The position numbers were made by a program, and so were the translations under genes. A DNA stretch of 64,000 nucleotides. Origin: an uncultured Ignavibacteria bacterium. GTDB taxonomy: Bacteria; Bacteroidota; Ignavibacteria; Ignavibacteriales; Ignavibacteriaceae. The notes below the pieces were generated by a model. It had not been told where the DNA came from and did not search any database. It saw nothing but the letters and a program-made list of their open reading frames with translations. The stretch is from NCBI GenBank assembly GCA_963721075.1, contig CAVRHV010000008.1, positions 8,057 through 72,056 on the forward strand. The letters are read 5' to 3'. Positions 41,384 through 64,000 of the stretch are shown piece by piece; within the stretch, counting starts at the first letter, position 1, and each line of letters opens with the position of its first letter.

Positions 41384-43945
41384 ATGAAAGGTGTCAATAC
41401 AGTCATACGATGGTGGGTGGGATTTCTATCCATCATTCTTTTCCAATCGGCTTTGTTCGCTCAAAGCGGTATAAACGATATAGGCGGCTTTGAGCAGACC
41501 CTGCCCTCATACTGGAATATGACGTCAGCCCCTTCAGGTGCAACACTAACCTGGGCAACTGACGAATATCGTTCAATGGGTAAATCGCTGAAGATTGAAA
41601 AAACAGCCACAACAGACTCAGCTATGTGGCAATCGGATAATATGGTTGACCTCTGGTCGCAGAGACATTATGCTAATGTCGATATAAAGCTCGGAATGTA
41701 CTATATGACCTCAGGGGTAAATACCAATCCTGTCAATGAGGATGAGAAGTGGTATGTAGCTTATACATTCTATGACAGCTTAGATGCTGTGATAGGAGAA
41801 AAGAAATTTGAGCTGGATCAGAGCGTAGCCAGCACGAGCGGCTGGGTAGCAGATACCACAGCAATAGGAGAAGTTATACTACCGGAGGATGCATTCAAGA
41901 CGATCATCAGGTTTGTAGGAGGAAAGAATGCAACCGGAACCGTATGGACAGATGACTATATATTCGTAGGAAGAAACGGAGGTTGGGCAGGACAGGACTG
42001 GAACACAGCAGTAGGAGTGCCGACAGGCTGGTTCTACTGGCTGCCGCCGATCGGAGGAAATGATGGCGTATTAAATGCAGGATATGAAAATACAGTTGTT
42101 ACTGATGAGTATGCACATACAGGTAATTATTCGCTTAAATTTGATATTCCTGAAGGTTCGCATGACGGCTTTGTCGGAACAATTAAATATGCTCTTGATG
42201 ATGCACAGCCGGGCGATGTTCTGAGAATAAGTGTCTGGGTTAAGGGCGCTAATCTGGAGCCCGATTCTGTAATTGCAGTAGGTGATGCCTGGAGTGTTTC
42301 ACTTACAGCAATCTACCATACTACTATGGGAAATAATGCAGGGTTCGGAGATTATGCAGCCAGCCCTGACATCCCGCTCCAGTTCCCTCAAGCTACTGAA
42401 TTCGATTGGAGAAAGTTTTATGTCGATGTAACAATACCGGATCCTCCGGCTGGTGAGACAGCAAAATCGATTTCAGTAAGACTTCATCCTCTCGGCAGAT
42501 TCTCAGGTACTGTCTGGATGGATGATCTCCATATTGAAAAACTGGATCTTCCGGATCTCAATTCTATCGGAAGTTTCGAACAGGATCTTCCTTCATACTG
42601 GAATAAAGGTTCTGAGCCTGAGAATTCAACACTAACCTGGGCAACTGACGAATATCGTTCAATGGGTAAATCGCTGAAGATTGAAAAAACAGCCACAACA
42701 GACTCAGCTATGTGGCAATCGGATAATATGGTTGACCTCTGGTCGCAGAGACATTATGCTAATGTCGATATAAAGCTCGGAATGTACTATATGACCTCAG
42801 GGGTAAATACCAATCCTGTCAATGAGGATGAGAAGTGGTATGTAGCTTATACATTCTATGACAGCTTAGATGCTGTGATAGGAGAAAAGAAATTTGAGCT
42901 GGATCAGAGTGTAGCCAGCACGAGCGGCTGGGTAGCAGATACCACAGCAATAGGAGAAGTTATACTACCGGAGGATGCATTCAAGACGATCATCAGGTTT
43001 GTAGGAGGAAAGAATGCAACCGGAACCGTATGGACAGATGACTATATATTCGTAGGAAGAAACGGAGGCTGGGCAGGACAGGACTGGAACACAGCAGTAG
43101 GAGTGCCGACAGGCTGGTTCTACTGGCTGCCGCCGGTCGGAGGAAATGATGGTGTATTAAATGCAGGATATGAAAATACAGTTGTAACTGATGAATATGC
43201 ATACGATGGAAATTACTCGCTTAAATTTGATATCCCTGTCGGATCGCATGACGGCTTTGTGGGAACCAAAAAATTTACACTTGGTGATATTCAGCCAGGA
43301 GATGCGATAAGAGTAAGTGTCTGGGTTAAGGGCGCTAATCTGGAGCCCGATTCCGCAATTGCAGTAGGTGATGCCTGGAGTGTTTCACTTACAGCAATCT
43401 ACCATACTACTATGGGAAATAATGCAGGGTTCGGAGATTATGCAGCCAGCCCTGACGTACCACTCGAGTTCCCATATGCAACTGAGTTTGATTGGATGCA
43501 GTATCATGTTGATTTGATTGTGCCTGATCCCCCGGCTGGAGAAACGGCAAAGGCAATTTCAGTCAGATTACATCCGCTTGGAAGATTTTCCGGTACTGTA
43601 TGGATGGATTTACTTGAGGTAACAAAGGTTCCCGTCGGAGTTACCGAAGGAAAAGAATTCCAGCCTGTATCGTATAATTTATTCCAGAATTATCCGAACC
43701 CGTTCAATCCCACTACTATCATAAGCTACTCAATACCTAAAGTATCTCACGTTACTTTGAAGATATATGATATACTGGGTAGAGAGGTTAAAACTTTGGT
43801 GAGCGCTGATCAGAATAATGGAATCCATAGAGTTCAATGGAATGGAGACAATAACTATGGAACCAGAGTTTCCAGCGGTATATACCTCTACAGGATTGAA
43901 GCAGGTGATTTCATACAAACGAAGAAAATGATCCTGATTAAATAA
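41384..43945 (+). CDS. secreted surface protein made of two about 362-aa tandem modules (CBM-like jelly-roll suspected) plus a T9SS C-terminal sorting domain
   Basis: Signal peptide. Internal duplication. Tail 'NYPNPFNPTTIISY...IYDILGREV'. Confidence 0.85.
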   Translation: MKGVNTVIRWWVGFLSIILFQSALFAQSGINDIGGFEQTLPSYWNMTSAPSGATLTWATDEYRSMGKSLKIEKTATTDSAMWQSDNMVDLWSQRHYANVDIKLGMYYMTSGVNTNPVNEDEKWYVAYTFYDSLDAVIGEKKFELDQSVASTSGWVADTTAIGEVILPEDAFKTIIRFVGGKNATGTVWTDDYIFVGRNGGWAGQDWNTAVGVPTGWFYWLPPIGGNDGVLNAGYENTVVTDEYAHTGNYSLKFDIPEGSHDGFVGTIKYALDDAQPGDVLRISVWVKGANLEPDSVIAVGDAWSVSLTAIYHTTMGNNAGFGDYAASPDIPLQFPQATEFDWRKFYVDVTIPDPPAGETAKSISVRLHPLGRFSGTVWMDDLHIEKLDLPDLNSIGSFEQDLPSYWNKGSEPENSTLTWATDEYRSMGKSLKIEKTATTDSAMWQSDNMVDLWSQRHYANVDIKLGMYYMTSGVNTNPVNEDEKWYVAYTFYDSLDAVIGEKKFELDQSVASTSGWVADTTAIGEVILPEDAFKTIIRFVGGKNATGTVWTDDYIFVGRNGGWAGQDWNTAVGVPTGWFYWLPPVGGNDGVLNAGYENTVVTDEYAYDGNYSLKFDIPVGSHDGFVGTKKFTLGDIQPGDAIRVSVWVKGANLEPDSAIAVGDAWSVSLTAIYHTTMGNNAGFGDYAASPDVPLEFPYATEFDWMQYHVDLIVPDPPAGETAKAISVRLHPLGRFSGTVWMDLLEVTKVPVGVTEGKEFQPVSYNLFQNYPNPFNPTTIISYSIPKVSHVTLKIYDILGREVKTLVSADQNNGIHRVQWNGDNNYGTRVSSGIYLYRIEAGDFIQTKKMILIK
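41470..43630 (+). repeat. intragenic tandem duplication, period 1086 bp
   Basis: 41541... and 42627... read identically for hundreds of bases. I saw only three substitutions in the first about 520 bp. Divergence increases toward the 3' part of each unit. Confidence 0.9.
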
Positions 43946-43997
43946 CGACATATGTCGCCTCAGAAAAGATTAAATTAACAAAAAACTGAGGTGATAA

Positions 43998-44843
43998 ATG
44001 AATTTAAGAAGAAGCTTAATAAACAGACAGCAAATAAAAAGTTCGGAAGGAGAGTTCATCTGGGAATTAGAAAACTCATATGAACTCTCTCCGAAGTTAA
44101 GTTCATTAATACTAATAACAGCCAAAGAATGTTTAATAAGGGAGAATAATTTAAGAGAAGGACAAATAGAAGTTACAGTAATCGGGATAGAGGAAAGATC
44201 GGGAAAAGTAATAGAGAAGATGGAAAAGAAAAGAGTTAGGTTGACGATTGATAACGGTATAGAAGACCTGGAAGTTTTAAGGGAAAATGGAAGAGTAGAG
44301 CTGCGGAGAGTAAGGCTGCAGAGGATAAGCCAGGAAGCGATAGAACAGGAAGGAGTCGTAAGTCAAGAAGATTTATCCAAATATTTAGGATGCACAGTAA
44401 GGACTATTCAAAGAGATATAAGGATTATAAAAAAAGAAGGAATAGAAGTAGTAACCAGAGGATATATTCATAATATAGGCAGATGCCAGACACATAAAGT
44501 AAAAATAATAAGTATGATGTTAGATGGGATGACCTATAGTGAAATAAAACTAAGATCCAGACATTCGATAGGAGCAATAAAGAGATACATAGAAAGTTTT
44601 ACAAAAGTCGTAATGGCACAAAAAAAAGGGATATACAGAGTAAAAGATATAAGTGCAGTAACGGGTTTAAGTGAGGGATTAGTAAAACAGTACGTTGAGT
44701 TGCTGAAGGAAAGCAAAAAAGACAAAACAAGGAGAGAGAATCTCAAGCTATTGATAGAAAGAAACAGTTATAGAGAGCATATAAAAAAAACTGTAAAGAA
44801 GCATTCAGAGCCTCTGGCAGCTATGATGGGAGGCTTGTTATGA
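43998..44843 (+). CDS. multi-HTH protein of unknown function (DUF1670-like by recollection)
   Basis: Strong SD GAGGTGAT. HTH-like segments 'SQEDLSKYLGCTVRTIQRDIRIIKKEG', 'MTYSEIKLRSRHSIGAIKRYIESF' and 'VKDISAVTGLSEGLVKQYVELL'. Confidence 0.75.
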   Translation: MNLRRSLINRQQIKSSEGEFIWELENSYELSPKLSSLILITAKECLIRENNLREGQIEVTVIGIEERSGKVIEKMEKKRVRLTIDNGIEDLEVLRENGRVELRRVRLQRISQEAIEQEGVVSQEDLSKYLGCTVRTIQRDIRIIKKEGIEVVTRGYIHNIGRCQTHKVKIISMMLDGMTYSEIKLRSRHSIGAIKRYIESFTKVVMAQKKGIYRVKDISAVTGLSEGLVKQYVELLKESKKDKTRRENLKLLIERNSYREHIKKTVKKHSEPLAAMMGGLL

Positions 44844-45439
44844 GTTTAAATCAGACAAGAGATAGGTATGAAAGCATAAACAAAAGGAATTTTCATCAGG
44901 CAATAGTAAACCTGCTGGAGAATGAATATAAGATACTGGGGTCAAGAAAAGTACTGGATATGCTGGCAGACGATATAGAAGATCTGCACAGGGAATATTA
45001 TCCGGTAAGCAACCAGGTAGGGATCGGAGAAATAGTTTTCAGAACGACGAAGGATGATGGTCAACGACAGAATTATGGTAAGAAGACGGAAGATTATGCG
45101 GCAGTGACAGTAGTACTTCCACTGATAACCGAAGAAGATGTAGAAAGAAGAATCTTCTATAAGAAGGGAGACCGTAACAGTAATTATAAACACCGGGAAG
45201 CAAGAGATATAGAGACAATGGTAAGGTTGCTGAAGGCCGCCAAGGCACAGGGAGGATTACTAAGCGGAGCAGAGCTGAGTGTTTTAATGAATAGAAGCCT
45301 GACTTCAATAAGGAAATATTTAGATGCTTACAGAACAAAAACCGGAGAGATACTTCCATTGAAAGGATATGTGCTGGACCAGGGAAGTTTACCGACACAT
45401 AAAGGAATCATAATAAGTTTATATGAGCAGGTTAAGTAA
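44840..45439 (+). CDS. HTH protein of unknown function, paralogous to the C-terminal half of the preceding gene
   Basis: ATGA start/stop overlap. GGGAGG SD. 'LSGAELSVLMNRSLTSIRKYLDAYRTKTGEILPLKGYVLDQGSLPTHKGIIISL'. Confidence 0.75.
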   Translation: MSLNQTRDRYESINKRNFHQAIVNLLENEYKILGSRKVLDMLADDIEDLHREYYPVSNQVGIGEIVFRTTKDDGQRQNYGKKTEDYAAVTVVLPLITEEDVERRIFYKKGDRNSNYKHREARDIETMVRLLKAAKAQGGLLSGAELSVLMNRSLTSIRKYLDAYRTKTGEILPLKGYVLDQGSLPTHKGIIISLYEQVK

Positions 45440-45451
45440 GAAATGTAGTTA

Positions 45452-45526: not shown

Positions 45527-48229
45527 GTGGATGTAATGTTCACTACGAATAACCATATTAAAAGACTGGTGTCGGTTCTGTCCGTGTTAATATGCATGAC
45601 AGCTAGTCAGGTCTTCGCAGGTACAACCGGCAAGATCTCCGGCAAAATTATTGATAAAAGCACGGGCGAAGCATTAATAGGTGCAAATGTTCTGATTGTA
45701 GGCACTTCGATGGGATCATCATCAGACATTGACGGAAATTATTTTATTCTGAATATCCCTCCGGGAGAATACCAGGTAAAAGCCTCAATGATCGGCTACG
45801 CTTCTGTTACTTTTGAACATGTAAAAGTATCAGTTGATCAGACTACCAAAATAGATTTTGAACTTAACCCCGAATCAATTGAACTCGAGAATGTGGTAGT
45901 AACGGCGGAGAAACCGATTGTAAGAAAAGACCTTACTTCAACTGAACAGACAGTGAGCGGTGACGATATCTCTATGCTTCCTCTTGAAGACGTTGCATCG
46001 GTTGTTAACCTTCAGGCCGGAGTTATTAACGGCCATTTCAGGGGCGGCAGGAGTGATGAAGTCCGTTACCTGATAGACGGTGTGCCGGTAAATGATGTTT
46101 ATTCGGGACAATCATCCCTTTCGGCAGAGGTTAACAGTATTCAGGAAGTCCAGGTTCTCGTAGGAACTTTTAATGCTGAATACGGTGATGCACAATCCGG
46201 TGTGGTTAACCAGGTAACAAAGATTGCCGGAGACAAACTTACAGGAAATATTTCTGCATACACAGGTGATTATGTCAGCTCTCATACAGGGATATTTCAG
46301 TACATAAATCATATAAGTCCAAACGATGTTTATGATTTGGAAGGAAATCTTAGCGGTCCTGTCCCGGGCATTGGAAACCTGTTAAAGTTTTTTGTTTCGG
46401 GAAGATACAATCGCGATCAGGGTTATATCTATGGACACAGGATATTTAACCCCCAGGACTCCTCTAACTTTTCGGCTAATGATCCTGCTGACTGGTATGT
46501 CGGCGCTACAGGTGATAAAGCTTATGTTCCTATGAATTACAGTCATAGGCTGTCCCTTCAGGGTAAACTGAGCATAAATGTCGGCAGTGGAAGAGGAATA
46601 GTATTAACCGGACTTTACCAGGACAATCAGTATAAAGATTATAATCATCTTTACCAGTTGAACCCTGACGGCGATTATAAAAAATTCCAGAAGAGTATAC
46701 TGGGAATAGCAAGTTACACCTTTTTGTTAAGCAATTCTGCTTTTATAGATTTATCGGCCTCGGCATTGCAGTCTGAGTATAAACAGTATGTTTATCAGAA
46801 TCCTCTTGACCAGCGCTATGTTAATCCGGATAGAAAAAAAGATGTCAGCGGCGACGCTTTTTATACCGGAGGTACGGAGAACTGGCATTTTAATCATACG
46901 ACAACAAGTTTAACCGGGAAGGCTGATTTTTCATGGCAGATTGATAATATTAATCAGATAAAAACAGGTGTTGAGTTTACACGTCACGATCTGAAGTACG
47001 AGGACTTTCAGATAATAATCGATGCAACTTCAAATTTCAAACCTATGCTTCCATCACCCGGAGCTTTTAATTACAACACTTATCATGCAAATCCATATCA
47101 GGCGGCCTGGTACATTCAGGACAAGATTGAGATCGATTATCTTATTGTTAATGCCGGAGTAAGGTTCGACTACTTTGAGCCAGATGGACAGTACCTTAAG
47201 AACCCCAACAAAATAAACGAACTTGATGAGCTTCAGCCTCCGTTCCCTGATTCATTAATGGTGAATGCCTCAGCCAAGTATCAGTTTAGTCCAAGAATAG
47301 GAATCTCATACCCGATCTCAGATCAGGGAGCTATACACATATCATACGGTCATTTCTTCCAGATACCCCCGTTTGAGAACCTGTACCGAAATCCTAATTT
47401 CAGAATTCCTCTTACCGGTGATTTTCCCGAAAATATCGGCAATGTAATAGGTAACGCCGATCTTAAACCGCAGCAGACAATAATGTATGAGATTGGTCTG
47501 CAGCAGGCTCTGACAAATGATCTCGGAATGACTATAACCGGTTATTATAAAGATATAAGGAACCTGCTGGGAACAGAAATATATATCAAGAATGAATTCA
47601 GAAAATTCAGTAAGCTGGTAAACAGGGATTATGGATCCGTAAAGGGAATTACCCTGTCACTGGAGAAGAGGTTCAGTGGTGGATTAGGCGCTGCAATAGA
47701 TTATACTTTCCAGGTGGCCAAAGGAAGTGCTTCTGATCCTAATGCAGCTTTTAATAATGCTCAGGCAAATCCTCCTATCGAAGCAAACAAACAGCTTGTG
47801 CCTCTTGACTGGGATGGAAGACATACTCTCAGGTTCACACTAACTCTGGGTGAGCCCGGGAATTATATTGCCAGCTTTATCGGCCGGCTCGGATCGGGTC
47901 TGCCATATACGCCGTCCCTGCAGAATCAAAGAACAGGACTGGAAAACAGCGATAACAAACCACCTTATTATGATGTCGATGTATACCTGACAAAATACAT
48001 TGATATTGCGGGACAGCAGTTCTCGATTTTTGCAAAAGTTTACAACCTTTTCGATACCCTGAATGAGAATGATGTATTCGGTGATACAGGCAGAGCAGGA
48101 TATACATTGGAGCTTACAAGAAACCAGGCTCCTCCCAGAGGTGTTAATACCATCCAGGAATATTTTACAAGACCCGATTTTTATTCAGCGCCCAGGCAGA
48201 TTGTTATCGGGGCGGAAGTATCATTTTAG
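45527..48229 (+). CDS. TonB-dependent outer-membrane receptor with N-terminal carboxypeptidase-regulatory-like domain (start may be ATG 45536)
   Basis: 'GKISGKIIDKSTGEALIGANVLIVGT...DGNYFILNIPPGEY', the plug 'VVVTAEKPIV...', barrel repeats and a terminal aromatic '...GAEVSF'. Confidence 0.92.
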   Translation: MDVMFTTNNHIKRLVSVLSVLICMTASQVFAGTTGKISGKIIDKSTGEALIGANVLIVGTSMGSSSDIDGNYFILNIPPGEYQVKASMIGYASVTFEHVKVSVDQTTKIDFELNPESIELENVVVTAEKPIVRKDLTSTEQTVSGDDISMLPLEDVASVVNLQAGVINGHFRGGRSDEVRYLIDGVPVNDVYSGQSSLSAEVNSIQEVQVLVGTFNAEYGDAQSGVVNQVTKIAGDKLTGNISAYTGDYVSSHTGIFQYINHISPNDVYDLEGNLSGPVPGIGNLLKFFVSGRYNRDQGYIYGHRIFNPQDSSNFSANDPADWYVGATGDKAYVPMNYSHRLSLQGKLSINVGSGRGIVLTGLYQDNQYKDYNHLYQLNPDGDYKKFQKSILGIASYTFLLSNSAFIDLSASALQSEYKQYVYQNPLDQRYVNPDRKKDVSGDAFYTGGTENWHFNHTTTSLTGKADFSWQIDNINQIKTGVEFTRHDLKYEDFQIIIDATSNFKPMLPSPGAFNYNTYHANPYQAAWYIQDKIEIDYLIVNAGVRFDYFEPDGQYLKNPNKINELDELQPPFPDSLMVNASAKYQFSPRIGISYPISDQGAIHISYGHFFQIPPFENLYRNPNFRIPLTGDFPENIGNVIGNADLKPQQTIMYEIGLQQALTNDLGMTITGYYKDIRNLLGTEIYIKNEFRKFSKLVNRDYGSVKGITLSLEKRFSGGLGAAIDYTFQVAKGSASDPNAAFNNAQANPPIEANKQLVPLDWDGRHTLRFTLTLGEPGNYIASFIGRLGSGLPYTPSLQNQRTGLENSDNKPPYYDVDVYLTKYIDIAGQQFSIFAKVYNLFDTLNENDVFGDTGRAGYTLELTRNQAPPRGVNTIQEYFTRPDFYSAPRQIVIGAEVSF

Positions 48230-54130: not shown

Positions 54131-55417
54131 ATGAAGATCCCCTTAATTATAATTTTTAGTCTGGTTCTGCTCTCTTTGAATAGCTGCAGCAGCGATAAAA
54201 AAAATGAAAATCGCCTTCTTTACTGGTGTTCTAATAACTCAGATGAAATAAGTTTTGCAAAGGTACGTACTGCAGAATGGAACAGCGGCAGACCTGAACT
54301 CCCTGTTAAATTTCAGCCTGTTCCTGAGGGACGATCAAGTGAAGAGATCATTCTTGCTGCGGTTGTGGGCAATACTACTCCGGATATTTATTCTAATATG
54401 TGGCAGGGGGATGTTGAAGCCTATGCCCAGGCAGGTGTACTGGTCGCACTCGATACCCTGGCAGGCTTCATGGATTTTATGTACAGCAGATGTGATAGTT
54501 CTGTGATTGAAGAAATCACTTCACAGGATGGACATATATACCAGATTCCGTGGAAAATAAATCCTATCATGCTTATATATAATGTTAATATAATTAACAA
54601 CCTCGGATTGAAAAATCCTCCGCAAACCTATGATCAGTTCTTTGACGCATCAAAGAAATTTCAGAAGGACATCAATGGCGACGGTTATGTTGACAGGTGG
54701 TTCGGATACTCGGAGGTACTTGTTACCTGGTGGCAGAGATTTTTTGATTTTTATCCCCTTTATCTTGGCGCTTCCGGCGGAGCACCTCTGGTTAAAGATG
54801 ATAAAGCTGTTTTTGATAATAAATATGCGGTTGAAGTATTCAGGTTTCTTCAGACTTTATATAAGAAAAAATACTTTGCAAAAGAACAACTGTCAGCCAG
54901 GCAGGATCCTTTTTTGTCGGGCGTAATTGCCTCACGTTTTACCGGACCCTGGGAAATCGCTCACGCCGAAAAATATAAACCTGAAGGGTTTATTTATGAT
55001 TACACAACTCTGCCTGTGCCCGATGACCATAAAGGTCCTGTCTATACATACGGCGATCCGAAGAACATTGTAATCTTTAAAAGCTGTAAAGATCCGGCGG
55101 CTGCATGGGATTATATTAAAACACTGATAAATAAAGAAGGGGATTTGAAGCTCCTGGAATTAACCAACCAGCTTCCCAGGCGTAAGGATCTGGAGAAAGA
55201 TCCTTTTTTCAGCAGCTATTTCAGTAAAAATCCAAAGATGAAAGTATTTGCGGAAGAGGCAAGGTACGTAAAAGGCACAGATGCATCGCCCGTACTGAAA
55301 GAAGTTTTCGATTTAATCTCACAGGAATATGAAGCGTGTGTCGTTTACGGTCAGAAGACTCCTGAACAGGCGGTCAAAGATGCCGCTGATGCAGTAAATT
55401 TATTGTTTATAAAATAA
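54131..55417 (+). CDS. ABC sugar transporter substrate-binding lipoprotein (family 1 SBP)
   Basis: Lipobox 'LSLNSCSS'. Typical SBP_bac_1 length and pattern. Followed by two permeases. Confidence 0.88.
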   Translation: MKIPLIIIFSLVLLSLNSCSSDKKNENRLLYWCSNNSDEISFAKVRTAEWNSGRPELPVKFQPVPEGRSSEEIILAAVVGNTTPDIYSNMWQGDVEAYAQAGVLVALDTLAGFMDFMYSRCDSSVIEEITSQDGHIYQIPWKINPIMLIYNVNIINNLGLKNPPQTYDQFFDASKKFQKDINGDGYVDRWFGYSEVLVTWWQRFFDFYPLYLGASGGAPLVKDDKAVFDNKYAVEVFRFLQTLYKKKYFAKEQLSARQDPFLSGVIASRFTGPWEIAHAEKYKPEGFIYDYTTLPVPDDHKGPVYTYGDPKNIVIFKSCKDPAAAWDYIKTLINKEGDLKLLELTNQLPRRKDLEKDPFFSSYFSKNPKMKVFAEEARYVKGTDASPVLKEVFDLISQEYEACVVYGQKTPEQAVKDAADAVNLLFIK

Positions 55418-55426
55418 AATACAGGA

Positions 55427-56287
55427 ATGAGTAACAGAAAAAAAATATTACCTTACCTGCTTGTTTCACCCTATATAATACACTTCCTGCTGTTTGTTTC
55501 GTTCCCTGTGGTCTTTTCGATAATTCTAACATTCCACAAATGGAATATAATTTCTCCGATGGAGTATTCAGGAATTACGAATTATGTTAAATTGTTTGCC
55601 GATAAAACGTTTTTCAAATCAATCTTTAATACACTTATATTCCTCGTCATTCATATTCCATTGCAGATTATTGTTGCGCTCTTTCTTGCTGAAGTCTTAA
55701 ATCAGAATATTAGACTGCGGGGACTTTTTCGGGGGGCGTTTTTCCTGCCTGTTATAGTTTCAGGTGTAGTTGTGTCAATGTTGTGGCAGCAATTATACGG
55801 CTTCGATACCGGTCTGCTTAACAGACTGCTGACATCTATAGGCCTTGATAAGGTCGGCTGGCTGATCGATCCCAAAATAGCTATGCCTTCGATTGCACTG
55901 ATGGCGACATGGAAAAATGTCGGGCTCTATATAATTTTATTCCTGGTAGGACTCCAGACAGTCCCTGTACAATATTATGAGGCCGCTGATCTCGAAGGAG
56001 CCTCTCATTTTCAGAAATTCTTTAAGATCACCCTTCCCATGATAAATCCTACGATATTTATGGTAGTTATTCTTTCAACTATCGGAGGCTTTTCATTATT
56101 TATTGAACCATATATAATGACGGGCGGGGGACCCTTGAACAGTACGGTATCGGCGGTACTTTATATCTACAAACAGGGCTTCTTTTATTACCATATGGGA
56201 TATGCTGCTACACTGGGATTGTTCTTTGCATTGATCATTCTTGCGGTTGTGGTAATTCAGAAAAAGTTCATAGAGAAAAACAATTGA
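55427..56287 (+). CDS. carbohydrate ABC transporter permease
   Basis: Six TM segments and the EAA loop 'YYEAADLEGASHFQKFFKITLPM'. Confidence 0.92.
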   Translation: MSNRKKILPYLLVSPYIIHFLLFVSFPVVFSIILTFHKWNIISPMEYSGITNYVKLFADKTFFKSIFNTLIFLVIHIPLQIIVALFLAEVLNQNIRLRGLFRGAFFLPVIVSGVVVSMLWQQLYGFDTGLLNRLLTSIGLDKVGWLIDPKIAMPSIALMATWKNVGLYIILFLVGLQTVPVQYYEAADLEGASHFQKFFKITLPMINPTIFMVVILSTIGGFSLFIEPYIMTGGGPLNSTVSAVLYIYKQGFFYYHMGYAATLGLFFALIILAVVVIQKKFIEKNN

Positions 56288-57102
56288 AATATCTTAAAAA
56301 AATATTGTTCTATGCTGCACTGACTATCAGTGCACTGACCTTTGTTTATCCATTCTACTGGATGGTAATGGGTTCATTCTCGCCTGAAAAAGAAATCGGA
56401 AGTCTTACTTTCCTGCCGGATTCAGTGACTTTGAGCAGCTATTCACAGATGTTTGACAAGATACCGATAGGCGGAGCATTTGTGAACAGTATGATCGTTT
56501 CTCTGTCTATCACTATCGGAGTGCTTGTTTTTGGATCAATGATCGGATATGCCCTGGCAAAGCTTACCTTCAGGGGAAGAGAGCTAATATTTTATATAAT
56601 CATTTTTACCATGACGCTGCCTTTCCAGATAACGCTTATACCACAGTACATAATTATGGTAAAATTCGGATGGATTGATACATATCTTGCACTTATAGTC
56701 CCGTACCTCATCAATGCCCTGAGCATAATTATGTTCAGGCAGTATTTCAAGACGATACCCGACAGCCTGATAGATGCCGCAAGGATAGACGGCTGTAATG
56801 AGCTTCAGATAATATTCAGGATATTATGGCCTAATTCGATGCCCGCTATAATAACGATAGCAATTATTACTTTTATGGCTTCGTGGAATGAAGTGCTCTG
56901 GCCTTTGATTGTTATCCGCGATGAAAGTTTAATGACTATGCCCCAGCTTGTTACACTCTTTTCTGTGGGAGGCAGAGCGGACTCACAGCTTGGTGTCAAA
57001 CTTGCTTCGGCAGTAATGCTTGCCCTGCCGATAGTACTGGCGTATCTGTTCTTCCAGAAATATTTCATACAAAGTATGACTTCAACAGGGTTAAAGGAAT
57101 AA
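56284..57102 (+). CDS. carbohydrate ABC transporter permease (TTG start)
   Basis: EAA loop 'LIDAARIDGCNELQIFRILWP...'. 4-nt overlap with the upstream permease gene. Confidence 0.92.
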   Translation: MKYLKKILFYAALTISALTFVYPFYWMVMGSFSPEKEIGSLTFLPDSVTLSSYSQMFDKIPIGGAFVNSMIVSLSITIGVLVFGSMIGYALAKLTFRGRELIFYIIIFTMTLPFQITLIPQYIIMVKFGWIDTYLALIVPYLINALSIIMFRQYFKTIPDSLIDAARIDGCNELQIIFRILWPNSMPAIITIAIITFMASWNEVLWPLIVIRDESLMTMPQLVTLFSVGGRADSQLGVKLASAVMLALPIVLAYLFFQKYFIQSMTSTGLKE

Positions 57103-57199
57103 AATAATTATGCTACTTAATAATTCAAAAACAGGAACTCAGAGTCCTGAAGCAGATAGGTTTGACAAGAGCAAAATGGAAAAACAAGGAGTATCATTA

Positions 57200-58105
57200 A
57201 TGAATAAGATAGTTAAGTATGAGGGTAACCCAATACTGACGAATAGAGATGTTCCGTTTAGGGTTAATTCGATTTTTAATGCAGGTGCGGTTAAAATAGG
57301 GGATCGTTATCTGCTGCTTTGCAGAACAGAGATGCCAGATGGGAGGTCCTCTTTTACCCTGGCTGAGAGTACTGATGGAATAAAATTTATGGTTGCAGAT
57401 AAACCTTGCCTTACGCCGCGCGATCACAAGGATTTTTTTGAATATGTTGAATGGGGAATTGAAGATCCGAGGATTATCCCCATTGACGGCAGTTATTATA
57501 TTACTTACACCGGTTACTCTCAATATCAGCCGCTTGTTATGCTTGCTGAAACAAATGATTTCAAAAGCTTTATCGTACATGGACCGATCAGTGAACCATC
57601 CAACAAAGACTGCTCTTTTTTTCCTGAAAAGATAGACGGCTATTATTGGAAAGTTGACAGACCCTCTGCCGGAAATCGAAAAGATATATGGATCAGCAAA
57701 AGTCCCGATCTTATTCACTGGGGCTCGCCGCGTGTTTTGATGCAGCCGCTTCCCGGAACATGGGAAGCCGATAAAATTGGTTCTTCGAGTAATCCGGTTC
57801 GGACAGAAGAAGGGTGGCTGATGCTTTATCATGGAGTACGGGAGTTTCCTGCCAGCTCAATCTATAAACTTGGAGTTGTTCTGCTTGATTTGGAAAAACC
57901 CTGGGTTGTAAAAGGAAGAAGCCGGGAACCGATTATTTTTCCTGATCATGATTATGAAAGAACGGGAGATGTTATGAATGTGGTGTTTTCCAATGGCTGG
58001 ATATCCGAACCGGATGGTAAACTAAAAATTTACTACTCAGGTGCAGATACTAACGTAAGCCTTGCGGTTACATCGAAAGAATACCTGGTGTCTTTATGTA
58101 TATAA
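57200..58105 (+). CDS. GH130-family glycoside phosphorylase/hydrolase (beta-mannoside-acting family)
   Basis: 'YEGNPILT...NAGAVKIGDRYLLLCR', 'GIEDPRI', 'YYITYTGYS', 'NKDCSFFPEK' and 'GWLMLYHGV...YKLGVVLLDLEKP'. ATG 57200 follows AAGGAG at 8-nt spacing. The ORF-track start is 57110. Confidence 0.85.
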   Translation: MNKIVKYEGNPILTNRDVPFRVNSIFNAGAVKIGDRYLLLCRTEMPDGRSSFTLAESTDGIKFMVADKPCLTPRDHKDFFEYVEWGIEDPRIIPIDGSYYITYTGYSQYQPLVMLAETNDFKSFIVHGPISEPSNKDCSFFPEKIDGYYWKVDRPSAGNRKDIWISKSPDLIHWGSPRVLMQPLPGTWEADKIGSSSNPVRTEEGWLMLYHGVREFPASSIYKLGVVLLDLEKPWVVKGRSREPIIFPDHDYERTGDVMNVVFSNGWISEPDGKLKIYYSGADTNVSLAVTSKEYLVSLCI

Positions 58106-59397
58106 AAATAATTAAAGTTAGATTTTTACTTTTAACTGTCTCCACTTTGTTTCTGTTTTCTTCCTGCGAATCTGCAAATGAACAGATGCAGAGTAAAGAT
58201 TCGCTGGTAAACTCAGCTCACCTTGACTCTCTTTACGAGCAGATAAATGTTAATGATAAAGTTATGGGAATTATCCACATATACAGCGATTATCCATCAT
58301 ATAAATGGGTCTCTGATGATGATGAAGGAGCTGCCTGCGTTGACGATGCTGCCCGTGCTGCGGTTTTTTACCTCAAAGAGTATGATTTAAGAAAAGATAC
58401 TGCAGCACTTGTAAAGGCTGAAAAACTAATTGAATTCTTGCTGTTTATGCAGTCGGATAACGGCTTTTTCTATAATTTCATTTTTGACGATAATACTATA
58501 AACAAGACTCACAAAAATAGTATTAATATTGCAGGCTGGTGGAGTTGGCGCGCAATGTGGGCTCTTTCTGAAGGTTATAGAATACTTAAAGAAATTGACC
58601 CGGATTTGTCCGGCAGGATAGCTGCGTCTTTAGGCAAAGCAGTAAATGCAGCAGAAAAATCTTTTCCGGTTGAGCAGAAAACAAGGAGTGTAGAAGGTGT
58701 AGAAATTCCTGAATGGCTGCCTGATGAAAGTGCCTCAGACCAGGCTGCGGTTCTCTTGCTTGCTTTCTTAAATGTATTTGAGCAGACTAAGGATTCTGTA
58801 GTTCTCAGGTATGCCGATACATTATGCGATGGTATCCTTCTTATGCAGAAAGGTGGCTCTGAAGAAATTCCGTACGGTGCTTTCCTGAGCTGGCAGAATA
58901 TCTGGCATGCCTACGGAAGCAGCCAGTCATATGCGCTGTTAAAGGCTTCCCGAATATTAAAAAGAACTGACATTCGGTCTGCTGCAATTAAGGAGATTAA
59001 TTTCTTTTATGATTATCTGCTGAAAAAGAATTTTCTCAACAGTTTTGAAATTACAAAAGCAGGAAGCAGCTATAATTTCTCTAAGGAGGAAAGATTTTCA
59101 CAGATAGCTTACGGGATAAGACCTATGATATTTTCATGCCTGGAGGCATTCTCATTAACAGGCGACTCAGCCTTTTATTCCAAAGCTGCAAAGATAGCTG
59201 GCTGGTTTTTCGGTCAAAATCCTGCAAATACCCGGATGTACAATCCTTCTAACGGAATTTGTTTTGACGGCATAAATTCTGCCGATGAAGTCAATTTAAA
59301 TTCCGGAGCGGAATCTACAATAGAAGCCCTGCTCTCGATGCAGATGCTTGAACAATATGGATTAAGCAATAGTATTATCAAACAAAGATTGGAATAA
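58096..59397 (+). CDS. lipoprotein of unknown function (helical, possibly (alpha/alpha)-toroid)
   Basis: Lipobox 'LFSSCES'. Trp/Ala-rich helices ('GWWSWRAMWALSEGY'). I recognise no family. Confidence 0.55.
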   Translation: MYIKIIKVRFLLLTVSTLFLFSSCESANEQMQSKDSLVNSAHLDSLYEQINVNDKVMGIIHIYSDYPSYKWVSDDDEGAACVDDAARAAVFYLKEYDLRKDTAALVKAEKLIEFLLFMQSDNGFFYNFIFDDNTINKTHKNSINIAGWWSWRAMWALSEGYRILKEIDPDLSGRIAASLGKAVNAAEKSFPVEQKTRSVEGVEIPEWLPDESASDQAAVLLLAFLNVFEQTKDSVVLRYADTLCDGILLMQKGGSEEIPYGAFLSWQNIWHAYGSSQSYALLKASRILKRTDIRSAAIKEINFFYDYLLKKNFLNSFEITKAGSSYNFSKEERFSQIAYGIRPMIFSCLEAFSLTGDSAFYSKAAKIAGWFFGQNPANTRMYNPSNGICFDGINSADEVNLNSGAESTIEALLSMQMLEQYGLSNSIIKQRLE

Positions 59398-59404
59398 TCT
59401 GAAA

Positions 59405-60862
59405 ATGATAGTGGAAAAGACCCGGCTGCTTTTAAAACCAGACCCTGAAAAAGTACTGCTCCGTCCTCTTGAGCCTTCATCCGTAAACCAAAAGATGAAC
59501 ATCATTAATAGATTGCTGAATCTCACTGAACAGGATGTAAAAAATGAGCTGGATAAGATCAACATCGAATTTAAGAACAGGCACAGGAATACAGAGGATT
59601 TCTTTCTGAAACGTTATAACCAGGTCGCTTCTTATTTTCCGGATAAGAAGGAGTTTAGCAGAGAACGGAAACTTCTTGCCGGCGCTATATTTTCAATGGA
59701 ATATTCTCTCGAGTCAGCTGCACTGTTCAATCCTTCAATTGTTTGGGATCCTGATCAGTCGGGACTCCAGGACGGAAGCAGAAGGTATATACTGAGTCTG
59801 CGTGCAGTTGGTGAAGGTCATATATCCTCGATCGTGTTTCGCACAGGGATTATCGACAGTAATAATAAAATAACGGTTGATGATCCTGCCCGTTTTGTTT
59901 CCGCGCCGGTATCAACAGCTAACCCGGTGTATGAAAAGGAATTGTTCATTAGGAAAATAGAGACTCTTAATTTAGGCGGTGAATTTTCTGGAAAGATTCT
60001 CGGGAGTCTTGGGAACACTTTTACGCTCAATGAGCTTGAGATTGCATTTAAACGAATCCTGTCGGATCCGAATTATGCCGGTAAAAATAACGCTGAAGCT
60101 GCCGAAGAAATTTTGTCTTTTAGCCGTTCAGAATATGAAATATTCTACAATGAAGAAATACCTTTAAGTGAAAGGATCATTTTTCCGGGAAGCCCGGCGG
60201 AATCCAACGGGGTAGAAGATGCACGGTTTGTTGGATTTACCGGAGAAGACGGCAGTATATCATTCTATGCTACATATACAGCTTACAACGGGAAGAAGAT
60301 CCAGTCGCAGCTCCTTGAAACAAAAGATTTCCTGCACTTCAGGATAAACAAAATTTTTGGATCTGAGGCCAGGAATAAAGGAATGGCATTATTTCCCCGG
60401 AAAGTAAACGGGAAGTATGTTATGCTTTCGAGACAGGATAATGAGAATAATTACATAATGTATTCAGATGATCTGCTTTTCTGGAACTCAAAAAAGTTAT
60501 TATCCGAACCTGCCTTTACCTGGGAGATGGTGCAGCAGGGAAACTGCGGATCTCCGGTCGAAACGGAAAAAGGGTGGCTGGTGCTGACACACGGGGTGGG
60601 ACCTGTGAGGAAATACTGCATTGGGGCAATGCTGCTTGATATCGATGATCCCGGAAAGGTAATCGGACGGCTTAAAGATCCTCTTATATATGCCGATGAA
60701 AAGGAAAGAGAGGGGTATGTACCTAATGTGGTTTACAGCTGCGGAAGTATTGTAAAAGGCAACGATTTGATCATTCCATATGCAGTATCTGATTATGCGG
60801 GCAGCTTTGCAAAGGTCAGTCTGTCGGCTCTTTTAAATGAATTAACATCTGAAAGAGGTTAA
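59405..60862 (+). CDS. GH130-fold protein with about 190-aa N-terminal extension
   Basis: 'GVEDARFV', 'YATYTAYNG', 'NKGMALFPRKVNGKYVML', 'GWLVLTHGVGPVRKYCIGAMLLDIDDP' and 'YVPNVVYSCG'. Confidence 0.8.
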   Translation: MIVEKTRLLLKPDPEKVLLRPLEPSSVNQKMNIINRLLNLTEQDVKNELDKINIEFKNRHRNTEDFFLKRYNQVASYFPDKKEFSRERKLLAGAIFSMEYSLESAALFNPSIVWDPDQSGLQDGSRRYILSLRAVGEGHISSIVFRTGIIDSNNKITVDDPARFVSAPVSTANPVYEKELFIRKIETLNLGGEFSGKILGSLGNTFTLNELEIAFKRILSDPNYAGKNNAEAAEEILSFSRSEYEIFYNEEIPLSERIIFPGSPAESNGVEDARFVGFTGEDGSISFYATYTAYNGKKIQSQLLETKDFLHFRINKIFGSEARNKGMALFPRKVNGKYVMLSRQDNENNYIMYSDDLLFWNSKKLLSEPAFTWEMVQQGNCGSPVETEKGWLVLTHGVGPVRKYCIGAMLLDIDDPGKVIGRLKDPLIYADEKEREGYVPNVVYSCGSIVKGNDLIIPYAVSDYAGSFAKVSLSALLNELTSERG

Positions 60863-60863
60863 C

Positions 60864-63427
60864 ATGTTAAAGAATTTACTGAAATTTTTATTGCCGGTTT
60901 TTGTGCTTGTACTTGTGAATTCCTCTGCCTGCAGGGGACAGATATCGGACGACAGGCTAAAAGTTGATTATAGCGGAGACGCAAAGATTGAAGTAGGCGG
61001 ACCTTTTGCGGGAATTGAACTTCACCATAGTTCACCCCTTCTTCAGAGGATCAGTTTCTTTTACCCGGTGGCAAATAGTCTTGATGAAAGTACTGATTAC
61101 TGGAAACGCGATACTTCTTTTATTATGCAGCTTGGTCTTAAAGTGGGTAACGGTCCAAAGGAGTTCATAGGTCGGGAACCATTTGAATTTACTTTGACAC
61201 CTTACTCAGTTGTATTTCATAAGGAGGATGACGAGAAAACTGTTAAAGTCTCTTATACCTTTGCGGGTTCAAAACCTGCGATGGTTATTAAATATGAAAT
61301 TATAAATAAAAAAAAGGAAAATACTCCTTTCGAATTCTATACGGATCTTGAGACTGCGTTAAGGACCAGTCATTCATTTAATTTTATTAATAATGCATGG
61401 ACTGAATACGACAGCAGCAATTCTGCAGTCTTCACAAATTTTGATGATCCGCAAACACAGAAAGCACAGATCATTATTATTAATGCAGGTGAAAAACCTG
61501 CCTCCTTCAGTACCGCAAGTTCTCTTACGGGATTAACTAATCCCGGTAATGATTGGATGACCCTGGAAAAATTAGATAATAAATTTATACCCCGGGAGAA
61601 TCAAAGCCGTCCTGCAGCTAAATTCCTTTACCGTAAAACTCTCAAACCCGGTGAAACCATGACTGTTGTGCAGGTCATAGGCATGTGCAGACAGGACGAA
61701 GGAAAAGAACTCGCAGATTATCTTAGTAAGAATTATCAAAAAGAAGTTAATAATTATGAGCAGGCGGTACTGAACAAAGTTTATAAAGGAACGGAACTTA
61801 GATCGGGCGATTCTGTAATAGATAAATCGGTTTCCTGGGCTAAAGCAATTCTCGAGGTAAATACACATTATATAGACGGCGAATTTACCCCGATGCCCTG
61901 TCCGGCCGAGTATAATTTTTACTTTACTCACGACGTACTTAAAACTGATCTGGCCGCGGTGAATTTTGATACTGCAAGGGTTAAAAGGGATCTGGACTTT
62001 ATTATCCGGCATGCTGATGAAGATAAGATCATTCCTCATGCGTATTACTGGAAGGACAGTGCCTTTGTTACCGAGTATGCGGCACATGACAACTGGAATA
62101 ACTTCTGGCTGATTATAGTCTCCGGAACATATCTTCGTCATTCTGGCGACACGACATTTGTAAGGACTCTTTATCCCTATATACAGAAGAGCCTGAAGCA
62201 GGCGCTTATGACCAAAGGTGACGATGACTTGATGTGGTCGAATATGCCTGACTGGTGGGACATAGGCAAGATCTATGGCCAGAGAACATATATGACCGTG
62301 CTGGCCATTAAAGCTATCAGAGAATATAATTTCATTTCTTCGGTTCTGGGAAATAACATTAATCAACTGCCCGAGTATGAATCTATGGCCGACCGAATGC
62401 AGCACCAATTGAATGCAAAGCTCTGGGATGACAGTCTTAAATATCTTATAAATTATTACGAACCTGGCAAAAAAGATACGCACTACTACATTGGTTCACT
62501 TCTGGCAGCACATTACGGTCTGCTGAGTAAAGAGAGGACGGATGAGCTTGTAGAGACTGCGGGTAAAAAGCTGCTCGATGAAAAGGTTGGTATTTATAAT
62601 GTTTTCCCCATGGATTTTGATAAGCTTGGAAGCTACCTGAAGTTTGTCGGGAATGAAGCGGGAGATCCGTTCCTTTATGCCAACGGCGGAATATGGCCTC
62701 ACGGAAATGCCTGGTATGCACTGGCCCTCATGGCTGATGGAAAAAAGGATAAAGCGTATTCATTTATCAGGAACATAATGACAATCGACGGCGTTATGGA
62801 AGGCCCGAACGGACAGCCGGCTATGTACGAAGTCAGGGATGGAAATTACAACGATCCCGCTGCATATGGAACAGTTGATAAGCCGCAGTTCCTCTGGGCC
62901 GCCGGCTGGTATCTTTATTCATTGTACCATCTGTTTGCGGTTCAGGAAAATGAATGGAACATACATCTTGACCCGTATAATCCGGGTGAAACCCCTGTTT
63001 TAATGGATCTCTACACTAGCGGAAGTCTGGCTGAATTAAATGTAACAGGCAGCGGAAAATATTTAAAAAGATACTCTACGACGGGAAAGAATTGCCCACA
63101 GCAGTCATTCCATATAGTGGAAAATTTAAACATATAGCATTAGAGACAGGTGTGCCTTCATCGCCCTACCTTGCAGACTGCCGGTCGCAGCTTGAGTCAG
63201 CCGGGTACGATGCCGGTTCAGGTGTGCTCAACCTGACGCTCAGAAGTTTTCCCGGGCATGCTGATATGGTCACTGTTATAACACCTGCAAAACCTTCCGG
63301 GGTATTTGTTGATGGTCAGCAGTTAATTGAACAGCCTGAGGTAACCGAAAGCGACGGAGTATATAGTATCAGCTTTGGATTCACATTCAAAAATACGGAA
63401 GCAGAAATTAGAATGGAGTTTGAATAA
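60864..63427 (+). pseudogene. (alpha/alpha)6-barrel glycoside hydrolase (GDE_C/GH63-like clan). One base appears missing in the A-run 63065-63069 as assembled
   Basis: 'LYANGGIWPHGNAWYALAL' and 'PQFLWAAGWYLYS'. Frame change from '...VTGSGKYLK' to 'KILYDGKELPTAVIPYSGKF...' (ORF 63092-63427). Confidence 0.75.
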
Positions 63428-63434
63428 TTTTAGA

Positions 63435-64000
63435 ATGAGTAAAAAGTATTACCTGCATGATAATTGGAGTGTTAAAGTTACGAGCAGCCCGCAAGGGGAA
63501 AAGGACTTTCCAGGCAAAAAACTAAAGAACTGGATTCCTGCTGAAGTTCCCGGAACAATCCATACTGACTTGCTGAATGCCGACATTATTGATAATCCTT
63601 TTAAAGAACGGAATGAATTTAATTATAACTGGATAACCAGAAGCGCGTGGACATACAGAACAGAATTTAAATATCCCGAAGGACTCAGCAGAAGTTCTAT
63701 AATAAAATTAGTTTTTGAAGGGCTTGATACTGCCGCAGACATATTCCTCAATCATAAATTAATCGGCCGTACCGAGAATATGTTTGTTAAATATGAATTT
63801 AATGTTGACCAGGTTTTGAATTCAGGCAGAAATGTCCTTGAGTTAAGATTTGAGTCGCCGCTTGAGCTGGCTGTTAAGCGTGAAAAAGAATACGGAAAAC
63901 TCTCGACTGCAAAAGATTCCTTCAGGGTTTATATAAGAAAGGCTCAGTATTCATTCGGGTGGGACTGGGGACCCTCTTATCCAACAACCGGAATCTGGCG
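63435..64000 (+). CDS. GH2 beta-mannosidase, 5' part (runs off the window)
   Basis: 'WSVKV...WIPAEVPGTIHTDLLNADIIDNPFKERNEFNYNWI...WTYRTEF...LVFEGLDTAADIFLNHKLIG...NMF' is the standard N-terminal pattern of bacterial beta-mannosidases. Confidence 0.8.
   Translation, partial: MSKKYYLHDNWSVKVTSSPQGEKDFPGKKLKNWIPAEVPGTIHTDLLNADIIDNPFKERNEFNYNWITRSAWTYRTEFKYPEGLSRSSIIKLVFEGLDTAADIFLNHKLIGRTENMFVKYEFNVDQVLNSGRNVLELRFESPLELAVKREKEYGKLSTAKDSFRVYIRKAQYSFGWDWGPSYPTTGIW

Follow-up and report, generated by a model that had tools for sequence, protein, structure and literature searches.

How two tandem modules of one reading frame can be nearly identical in one part and clearly diverged in another is the question raised by a gene of an uncultured Ignavibacteria bacterium (assembly GCA_963721075.1, contig CAVRHV010000008.1). 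The gene lies in a window of 64,000 nt, the whole stretch of DNA that was analysed, and all coordinates refer to this window (Table 1). A sequence-only reading had described an intragenic tandem duplication of 1086 bp in a T9SS surface protein, with an identity decreasing from 5' to 3', and had offered as causes either a gene conversion still active in the 5' half or diversifying selection on the 3' sub-domain.

Gene product, predicted fold and glycan locus

A Zn-dependent alcohol dehydrogenase (ADH) gene ends 15 nt upstream of the module gene. The N-terminus of the gene product, MKGVNTVIRWWVGFLSIILFQSALFAQS, resembles a signal peptide by eye; residues 1-30 comprise this putative signal peptide only, without an additional N-terminal domain. 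The C-terminus matches the sorting domain families TIGR04183 (E 1.1e-12, 47.7 bits at a cut-off of 23, residues 770-850) and PF18962 (E 4e-7). As far as tested, these two matches bear out the earlier assignment as T9SS surface protein. The locus also contains a gene of the PorV/PorQ family (NF033709, E 2e-61).

An AF2 model of the module (pLDDT 88.5, pTM 0.86) comprises two beta-sandwiches. The best Foldseek match was the tandem CBM22 of Xyn10C (4xup, E 1.6e-11). Further matches were SGBP-B of B. thetaiotaomicron (7kwb, E 9e-10), 2zey (CBM16, E 1e-5) and 2y6j (CBM4-2, E 6e-5); CBM27 also matched. The single domains yielded matches with a target-normalised TM of ~0.6. Searches of the module against the Pfam CBM families and of PDB sequences against a profile of 22 module sequences gave no match at E values up to 1, and NCBIfam and Pfam searches returned no family for the 362-aa module itself. 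The CBM4/9/22-like fold suggested by the sequence-only reading is supported at the level of the fold by the model and the Foldseek matches: as modelled, each module consists of two CBM4/16/22-like beta-sandwiches.

The locus is LacI-controlled. Besides a TonB-dependent receptor and an ABC sugar transporter, it encodes two members of GH130, a GH94-like protein and one member of GH2; no SusD-like family turned up among the neighbours. In relatives, the TonB-dependent receptor gene directly follows the module gene; in the window only, a private insertion of 1.5 kb separates the two. The non-catalytic protein is probably attached to the cell surface after predicted T9SS export. Fold and genomic context suggest the surface capture of a glycan as most likely function, the glycan possibly containing beta-mannosides.

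Identity mosaic between the two modules

The 1086-nt repeat was detected by a repeat search and by a self-comparison profile at offset 1086 along the gene. The offset profile verified the period and the two in-frame modules of 362 codons. Tandem Repeats Finder reported nothing, its longest period being 500.

Table 1. Features of the module gene and its downstream neighbour in the window
Feature	Position	Partner in module 2	Strand	Details
Module gene (ORF)	41384-43945		+	853 aa; putative signal peptide, modules 1 and 2, then the C-terminal T9SS type A sorting domain
Module 1	41474-42559		+	362 codons, in frame
Module 1, domain A	41474-41971			sub-structure by AF2 model
Module 1, linker	41972-42073			conserved; sub-structure by AF2 model
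Module 1, domain B	42074-42541			sub-structure by AF2 model
Diverged 5' module edge	41474-41540	42560-42626	+	28 differences in 67 nt, most diverged stretch
Exact repeat	41541-41840	42627-42926		gives the 1086-nt period
Converted tract 1	41541-42099	42627-43185	+	4 differences in 559 nt; dS 0.033, dN 0.002
Unconverted island (B var1)	42100-42227	43186-43313	+	codons 210-252
Converted tract 2	42228-42370	43314-43456	+	mid domain B; 2 differences in 143 nt
Diverged 3' edge (B var2) and junction	42371-42559	43457-43645	+	
Module 2	42560-43645		+	362 codons, in frame; module 1 sub-structure shifted by 1086 nt
T9SS type A sorting domain	43691-43933		+	residues 770-850
TonB-dependent receptor gene	45527-48229			

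Tract 1 covers domain A for the most part and extends through the linker to the first residues of domain B. Its substitutions are located at 41824, 41983, 42050 and 42067, and dense differences follow from 42100 onward. An earlier count of three substitutions over 520 nt from 41541 was exact (41824, 41983 and 42050). Both differences in tract 2 fall into the adjacent codons 265-266. The last 12 module codons depend on the position, leading from module 1 into the next module and from module 2 into the sorting domain. Domain A and the linker are 99.3% identical between the modules, domain B and the edges 58-80%. The peptides WRKFYVDVTI and WMQYHVDLIV, named earlier as an example of the divergence, were both found in the sequence.

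The clustering of the differences was compared with a randomisation, in which the 128 differences were scattered over the 1086 sites in 100,000 trials. The longest identical run was 283-286 nt, against a mean of 43 and a maximum of 117 nt in the randomised data. Four or fewer differences in 559 nt have a probability of 5e-25 by chance. The inter-module profile is a mosaic of two converted tracts, not a smooth gradient. Of the proposed 5'-to-3' decrease, the non-uniformity stands; a monotonic course does not, as the module start is diverged and tract 2 lies inside the 3' part.

Probable conversion and positional orthology among relatives

The comparison covered 77 public loci and 12 relatives that whole-genome searches had retrieved. 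Genes with one, two and three modules occur across the Ignavibacteriales, also among species within Melioribacter. A comparison of copy number in related genomes had been proposed with the duplication, and the module number indeed differs between species. Sliding identity of module 1 against module 2 revealed a tract of ~100% in the same place in eight of the 12 two-module genomes; the remaining four showed merely 80-90% over the core position. Among the multi-module genes of public genomes, the last two modules share a near-identical tract of 200 nt or more in 31 of 44; it starts within codons 1-40 in 27 and ends at codons 201-260 in 20 of these 31. The equivalent of the diverged 5' module edge is converted as well in some relatives. 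Genes with three modules often show complete identity of modules 1 and 2, the difference being confined to the second half of domain B in module 3; this is the pattern predicted by an unequal exchange located in domain A. The repeat is also the exact place at which many short-read assemblies break.

In the core tree (IQ-TREE), the module pairs within a genome were sisters at 99-100 support in seven of nine genomes of the genus. An arrangement with all modules 1 together was rejected by the AU test (p 1.7e-61). Species-specific core substitutions are common to both modules; the relative G012 has G012-specific residues in both of its modules. Nei-Gojobori estimates, also used for the B-variable segments, yielded a core dS of 0.033 within the genome versus ~1.4 between species. 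The tree of the diverged part (IQ-TREE) contained a module-1 clade of eight genomes (87/100) and a module-2 clade of six (94/96). Here, the AU test rejected a pairing by genome, with module 1 of G000 placed beside module 2 (p 9e-55). Three independent positional clades were present in the domain B tree, and the B parts of modules 1 and 2 were sisters within the genome in G010 only. Given this positional orthology outside the tract, seen in the module-1 and module-2 clades and the AU test, the duplication predates speciation. The phylogenetic discordance points to gene conversion or unequal exchange that has recurred independently of lineage and spans domain A and the linker. The earlier proposal of ongoing conversion over the 5' half is strongly supported by genome-wise sister pairs of the core and by the shared species-specific substitutions, and conversion appears to recur in many species.

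The best explanation, held with high confidence, is an ancient duplication with a core homogenised by recurrent conversion and with domain B loops and junctions kept position-specific under purifying selection. The internal duplication is older than the radiation of the genus and present in several Ignavibacteriales families. Homologous recombination between the tandem modules would repeatedly overwrite one copy over domain A and the linker, leaving the copy number unchanged. Such overwriting would hold the core at ~99-100% identity in each genome and allow free divergence between species. An unequal version of the same recombination would account for the one-module and three-module genes. The edges of the array escape overwriting, namely the first ~23 module codons and, above all, the second half of domain B in the last module. 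This escape may in part be an edge effect, as is common in tandem arrays, together with the recombination barrier from divergence itself, and in part purifying selection on the domain B loop cluster (codons 210-252) and the junction residues. Within this explanation, we infer the recombination mechanism, the glycan binding and the reason for the escape of domain B.

The tract boundary may instead be purely neutral, set by edges without flanking homology and by mismatches that block recombination, with no selection for a distinct last B domain. The selective constraint on B var1 has exceptions: tracts extend into domain B in several lineages (G010/L043, L049, L016, L094, L047 and L057), and at the order-wide scale B domains cluster by lineage, not by position; a neutral effect of edges and divergence barrier could therefore explain much of the boundary. 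Also in line with it, the array is diverged at either outer edge (module start and end of the last module), tract ends range from codon ~178 to ~313 between species, and fixed position-specific residues are nearly absent from B var2. As a complete account it is nevertheless doubtful, as the island of codons 210-252 has converted tracts on either side in the window gene. Across 10 genomes, the island contains six fixed or nearly fixed position-specific residues (H215Y, T216D, Y239F, D242x, A244I/V and V249A/N; fixed at 215, 242, 244 and 249), against none in 186 core codons. Most of them are located in two loops of domain B. The cross-position dN of the B-variable segments is 0.195 versus an orthologous dN of 0.08-0.09, and in the island it is twice the orthologous value. 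Diversifying (positive) selection as driving force of the divergence in the last ~400 bp of the module, the second proposal of the sequence-only reading, is improbable. It would agree with the concentration of amino-acid differences in domain B, partly in loops. The inter-module dN/dS of 0.19 at codons 210-252 and 0.06 at codons 300-357 indicates purifying selection and contradicts it, as does the conservation of module-1-type and module-2-type residues among species. With a dS of 0.87 and above 3 in the two diverged segments, the divergence is old. The divergence is either retained under purifying selection or just left unconverted, and is not a product of rapid diversification.

Three further readings concern the identity of the core. 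An independent recent duplication in each species, or loss followed by re-duplication, would fit the relatives with one, two or three modules and the fully identical modules 1 and 2 of three-module genes, which resemble a recent duplication by unequal exchange. It is very improbable, since the 3' parts and junctions are positional orthologues across the two-module genes of the genus; re-duplication of a whole module would erase this orthology, and only a replacement restricted to the core, that is conversion, fits. An artefact of assembly or polishing, by which a repeat of a metagenome-assembled genome was collapsed or cross-polished, is suggested by the breaks of short-read assemblies at the repeat and hardly credible otherwise: architecture, tract position and species-specific cores recur in dozens of independent assemblies, among them contigs of 0.5-5.9 Mb and the cultured isolate Melioribacter sp. 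OK-6-Me, which has three modules. Cross-polishing is unable to raise ~80% identity to 100%, and in the window four core differences persist between the copies, within an intact reading frame. Nucleotide-level purifying selection on the core, as might stem from an overlapping gene or from an RNA or regulatory element embedded in it, has nothing specific in its favour; in the linker (codons ~170-200), even the DNA sequence is conserved across families. This reading is the least credible and is rejected by the between-species core dS of ~1.4, as fast as in neighbouring genes or faster (0.99 for the adjacent ADH gene).

Comparison with known systems

Partial gene conversion with selection-limited tracts is classical in globin, opsin and RH genes and in bacterial tuf and rRNA copies. 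As in such concerted evolution, the paralogues are closer within a genome than the orthologues between genomes over a defined tract, and the flanks stay orthologous. Unlike in the classical cases, the paralogues are modules in one reading frame, and homogenisation of the same tract has apparently taken place independently in dozens of species across the order. The module gene is a clear yet not unprecedented case of concerted evolution inside a single bacterial gene. It represents a clean natural experiment, in which one domain evolves in concert and its neighbour by position, in one reading frame and replicated in dozens of species. This replication of the concerted versus positional pattern makes it a good system for studies on the tract lengths of intragenic conversion in bacteria and on the divergence barrier to recombination. 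A naive reading of the near-identity as recent duplication would be wrong, which is relevant to the dating of duplications in metagenome-assembled genomes.

The best structural match of the module, CBM22-1/CBM22-2 of Xyn10C from Paenibacillus barcinonensis (4xup), likewise consists of two consecutive CBM-type beta-sandwiches. The module differs from the Xyn10C CBM22 and from CBM16, CBM4-2 and CBM27 by an identity of 13-16%, by the lack of a Pfam CBM match and in that it is not appended to a catalytic domain. With the surface glycan-binding proteins (SGBPs) of Bacteroidota polysaccharide utilization loci (PULs), e.g. SGBP-B (7kwb), the protein shares a non-catalytic architecture of multiple beta-sandwiches and a gene position near a TonB-dependent receptor in a glycan locus. 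It carries a T9SS C-terminal domain instead of a lipoprotein signal, and it has no SusD partner among its neighbours. Judged by its modelled fold, the module flags a probable new CBM-like family in SusD-less glycan loci of Ignavibacteriota. The family of 362-aa modules lacks a Pfam model, and short-read assemblies routinely break in it. Literature searches on the module family, or on gene conversion in proteins of the T9SS or of Ignavibacteria, yielded no specific hit.

Tandem domains with identical DNA are known from Periscope Proteins and other bacterial surface proteins (SasG, Rib/alpha C, Sgo0707 SHIRT arrays) (Whelan et al., 2021, PMC8201768). The module protein resembles them in a repeat number that varies between related genomes, here from one to three among species. 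It may also resemble them as a surface protein of tandem folded domains with high DNA identity, an identity proposed to enable intragenic recombination. In contrast to Periscope Proteins, its unit is large, with 362 aa and two CBM-like domains, is present in one to three copies only (two in the window gene) and is homogenised only in part, over domain A and the linker. A Periscope trait is a rod that projects a distinct distal domain; no extra N-terminal domain is present in the gene product. The Ignavibacteria protein is without an N-terminal ligand-binding head, and the repeats themselves look like binding domains. Further differences are the predicted T9SS export and the environmental Ignavibacteria lineage. 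It is conceivable, though rather unlikely, that domain A is selected for DNA identity as such. A fast switching of the module number among one, two and three would then act as a 'rheostat' of avidity or reach for glycan capture on environmental bacteria with a T9SS, and the last B domain would be protected by a distinct anchor-proximal or ligand-specific role. If true, this would extend the principle of the Periscope Proteins to a new CBM-like family and to free-living Ignavibacteriota.

Module layout, predicted fold and genomic context

The gene for the T9SS surface protein carries two tandem modules, m1 and m2, each composed of domain A, a linker and domain B. A repeat search of the window yielded an exact direct repeat of 300 nt (41541-41840 = 42627-42926) with a spacing of 1086 nt. 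The modules differ at 128 positions, which are distributed very unevenly. A sequence-only reading had counted three substitutions in about 520 bp from 41541, which is exact by direct comparison, and the module peptides it quoted are present in the gene. The monotonic 5'-to-3' gradient it described was not recovered. Comparison at an offset of 1086 nt gives a mosaic, with two near-identical tracts between three diverged stretches. The longest identical run between m1 and m2 is about 285 nt, against a mean of 43 and a maximum of 117 nt in 1e5 random placements of 128 differences. With 128 differences between the modules, a 559-nt stretch would hold no more than four by chance with a probability of 5e-25.

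Coordinates of the T9SS-protein gene, its modules and tracts, and the downstream gene set
Feature	Position	Strand	Remarks
T9SS-protein ORF	41384-43945	+	853 aa
Module 1	41474-42559	+	362 codons, in frame; gene self-comparison at offset 1086 nt
Module 2	42560-43645	+	362 codons, in frame; gene self-comparison at offset 1086 nt
Diverged stretch at module start	41474-41540	+	28 differences in 67 nt
Near-identical tract 1	41541-42099	+	4 differences: 41824, 41983, 42050, 42067
Diverged island	42100-42227	+	about 30 differences
Near-identical tract 2	42228-42370	+	2 differences
Diverged module end	42371-42559	+	holds the rest of the 128 differences
ABC sugar transporter and GH genes	54131-63998		3' of the receptor module
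First GH130 gene	57110-58105		
Second GH130 gene	59405-60862		
GH94-like gene	60864-63137		
GH2 gene, start	63375 onward		

The protein ends in a type A T9SS sorting domain (CTD; TIGR04183, E 1e-12; PF18962, E 4e-7), in agreement with the assignment to T9SS by the sequence-only reading, and begins with what reads as a signal peptide. No family in Pfam, NCBIfam or the PDB sequences covers the modules. An AlphaFold2 model of module 1 only, from an alignment of 109 module sequences (window and public loci), is confident (pLDDT 88.5, pTM 0.86). It contains two beta-sandwich domains, A (residues 1-166) and B (about 201-356), connected by the very conserved linker GWAGQDWNTAVGVPTGWFYWLPPIGGNDG. In Foldseek searches against the PDB, the model matched the tandem CBM22-1/CBM22-2 of Xyn10C (4xup, E 1.6e-11) and the surface glycan-binding protein B of Bacteroides thetaiotaomicron (7kwb, E 9e-10). 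CBM16, CBM4-2, CBM27 and CBM61 were matched with E 1e-5 to 3e-4 and a target-normalised TM of about 0.6 for a single domain. A CBM4/9/22-like fold had been suspected, and CBM22, CBM4-2 and CBM16 are among these matches. Two beta-sandwiches per module together with the CBM matches lead to the predicted architecture A1-B1-A2-B2-CTD, comprising four CBM-like domains without a catalytic domain.

A LacI regulator and a Zn-dependent dehydrogenase are encoded upstream of the gene. Downstream, a TonB-dependent receptor, a 1083-aa protein and a PorV/PorQ-family barrel are followed by an ABC sugar transporter, two GH130, a GH94-like and a GH2 gene; this last set suggests a beta-mannoside or phosphorolytic glycan pathway. 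Fold and context point to surface glycan capture as the putative role of the protein, the ligand possibly being a beta-mannoside-containing glycan. Two DUF1670 ORFs (43998-44843 and 44840-45439; window 43946-45440) are missing in the relatives L031, L033 and L035, in which the stop of the T9SS gene runs straight into the TonB receptor region. They therefore represent an insertion private to the window genome, directly 3' of the repeat-bearing gene.

Concerted evolution of the module core

The duplication is old, so that a description as a recent event would mislead in this family; its core (domain A and linker) has recently been overwritten, in each lineage on its own. In G012, the closest relative, the first half of both modules carries the same species-specific residues, and the second half shows m1-type and m2-type peptides as in the window. 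Sliding m1-versus-m2 identity in a DNA alignment of 26 modules (A2) is about 100% over columns about 100-600 in 8 of 12 genomes, including two from another family, and 80-90% in the remaining four. In the core ML tree, modules pair by genome (7 of 9 pairs at 99-100 support), and the label 'module 1' requires nine changes, the maximum. The ML tree of the diverged part groups by position, with an m1 clade (8 genomes, 87/100) and an m2 clade (6 genomes, 94/96). The sole exception, G010, has a further-reaching tract. AU tests rejected 'all module 1 together' for the core (p 1.7e-61) and 'G000 module 1 with module 2', for the window genome, in the diverged part (p 9e-55). The earlier proposal of gene conversion over the 5' half is strongly supported by this pairing and by synonymous divergence: m1 and m2 of the window differ in the core by dS 0.033 and dN 0.002 (Nei-Gojobori), against a core dS of about 1.4 between orthologues of the genus. 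In G009, each module has a distinct core type, and other genomes carry either type in both modules, which weakly suggests conversion in both directions.

Nucleotide-level constraint is ruled out as the cause of the identity, since the core diverges freely between genomes at dS about 1.4, and the neighbouring dehydrogenase gene has a dS of 0.99 between the window and G012. Contigs of short-read assemblies frequently stop inside the repeat; such ends are expected for a true near-identical repeat. Against an assembly artefact, the same pattern with species-specific cores occurs in dozens of assemblies made independently, an isolate and very long contigs among them. In the window, four core sites still differ between the copies, the reading frame is intact and the genome holds two module copies only.

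Contigs ending in the repeat were found at L037, L050, L054, L056, L058, L062, L065, L067, L071, L074, L076, L077, L083, L087, L100, L102 and L104, and the assembly of the isolate Rosettibacter primus is among those affected. In public metagenome-assembled genomes, members of the gene family are thus systematically cut short or split, and copy number is under-reported.

Divergence in domain B

A codon-threaded comparison of the last two modules in 44 multi-module genes yielded a near-identical tract of at least 200 nt in 31, the longest of about 1070 nt. The tract starts within codons 1-40 in 27 of these 31 genes and ends at codons 201-260 in 20, just past the linker and within the first strands of domain B. 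The 13 genes without a long tract show 55-85% identity throughout, the unconverted baseline.

Diversifying selection on the 3' sub-domain, another earlier suggestion, finds no sign in domain B, as dN/dS between the window modules is 0.19 (codons 210-252) and 0.06 (codons 300-357). Residues differing consistently between internal and last modules across 10 genomes of the clade lie in codons 210-252 (H215Y, T216D, Y239F, D242x, A244I/V, V249A/N), mostly in two domain B loops. The only other site is the last 12 codons, the junction to the next module or, in the last module, to the sorting domain. None was found among the 186 core codons. In the B-variable segments, dN is 0.195 across positions, roughly double the 0.08-0.09 between orthologues. 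In the window, converted tracts lie on either side of the island at codons 210-252, a position that speaks for selection against its conversion. At the 3' edge (codons 300-357), hardly any positional residues are fixed, and the divergence is better explained by an edge effect of the tandem array plus a recombination barrier from divergence. Protection of domain B is not absolute: it has also been converted in several lineages, and the order-wide tree sorts B domains by lineage, grouping by position being confined to three shallower groups.

The window (42139-42228, 43129-43400) and G012 (L031) are much more alike at the start of domain B than in the background, with 92-97% DNA identity and dS 0.15-0.24, in contrast to 0.99 for the ADH gene and about 1.4 for the domain A core. 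This similarity occurs in both modules, yet is specific to the pair. Domain B segments may have recombined between lineages, or local synonymous constraint may account for it.

Copy number and known systems

A whole-genome search detected the two-module gene in nine further genomes of the genus, one with a broken second module and one with the gene split over contigs at the repeat. The gene is missing in 6 of 16 genomes of the window's own genus (g1), making the locus accessory within the genus. It is present in other families of the order, and single-module genes of about 499 aa also exist. Protein-database lengths of about 490, 850 and 1230 aa correspond to one, two and three modules, and proteins of these lengths were seen across Ignavibacteriaceae, Melioribacteraceae, Kryptonia, KSB1 and others. 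Copy-number variation among relatives, raised earlier, thus spans one to three modules. Most of the 77 related public loci come from metagenome-assembled genomes of Ignavibacteriota, and many lie on contigs of 0.1-5.9 Mb; among the sources are the isolates Melioribacter sp. OK-6-Me (three modules) and Rosettibacter primus.

Genes with three modules often show no difference between m1 and m2 over their full length; the last module alone stands out, by the second half of its domain B, as would be predicted from an unequal exchange within domain A of a two-module gene. L044, a single-module gene inside a two-module clade, falls in an unresolved fork with last-type domain B (m2 of L040 and L041), a position compatible with a reciprocal deletion product. 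L019 (G043, other family; 223-2571) contains at least two modules, and a third begins where the contig ends. Its complete modules are a shortened variant, each lacking about 25-30 residues of domain A (profile positions about 51-80). Frameshifts or a stop break one module in L034 (G014; 7583-8050 and neighbours), and broken modules also occur in L045, L048, L061, L063, L081, L090, L091 and L101. Pseudogenisation or homopolymer errors of long reads may account for the breaks.

A literature search found no description of this CBM-like module family, or of such behaviour in Ignavibacteria or T9SS cargo. For the Periscope Proteins, surface proteins such as SasG, Rib/alpha C and the SHIRT arrays, it has been proposed that the high DNA identity of their tandem domains allows intragenic recombination (PMC8201768). 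Like them, the T9SS protein, probably also at the cell surface, has tandem domains that vary in number and are kept almost DNA-identical, here over domain A and the linker; the pattern also fits classical partial conversion of duplicated genes. Unlike in these systems, a large two-domain CBM-like module serves as the repeat unit, homogenised in part only and present in one to three copies; the protein has no separate distal head domain, and its host is an environmental T9SS-bearing lineage.
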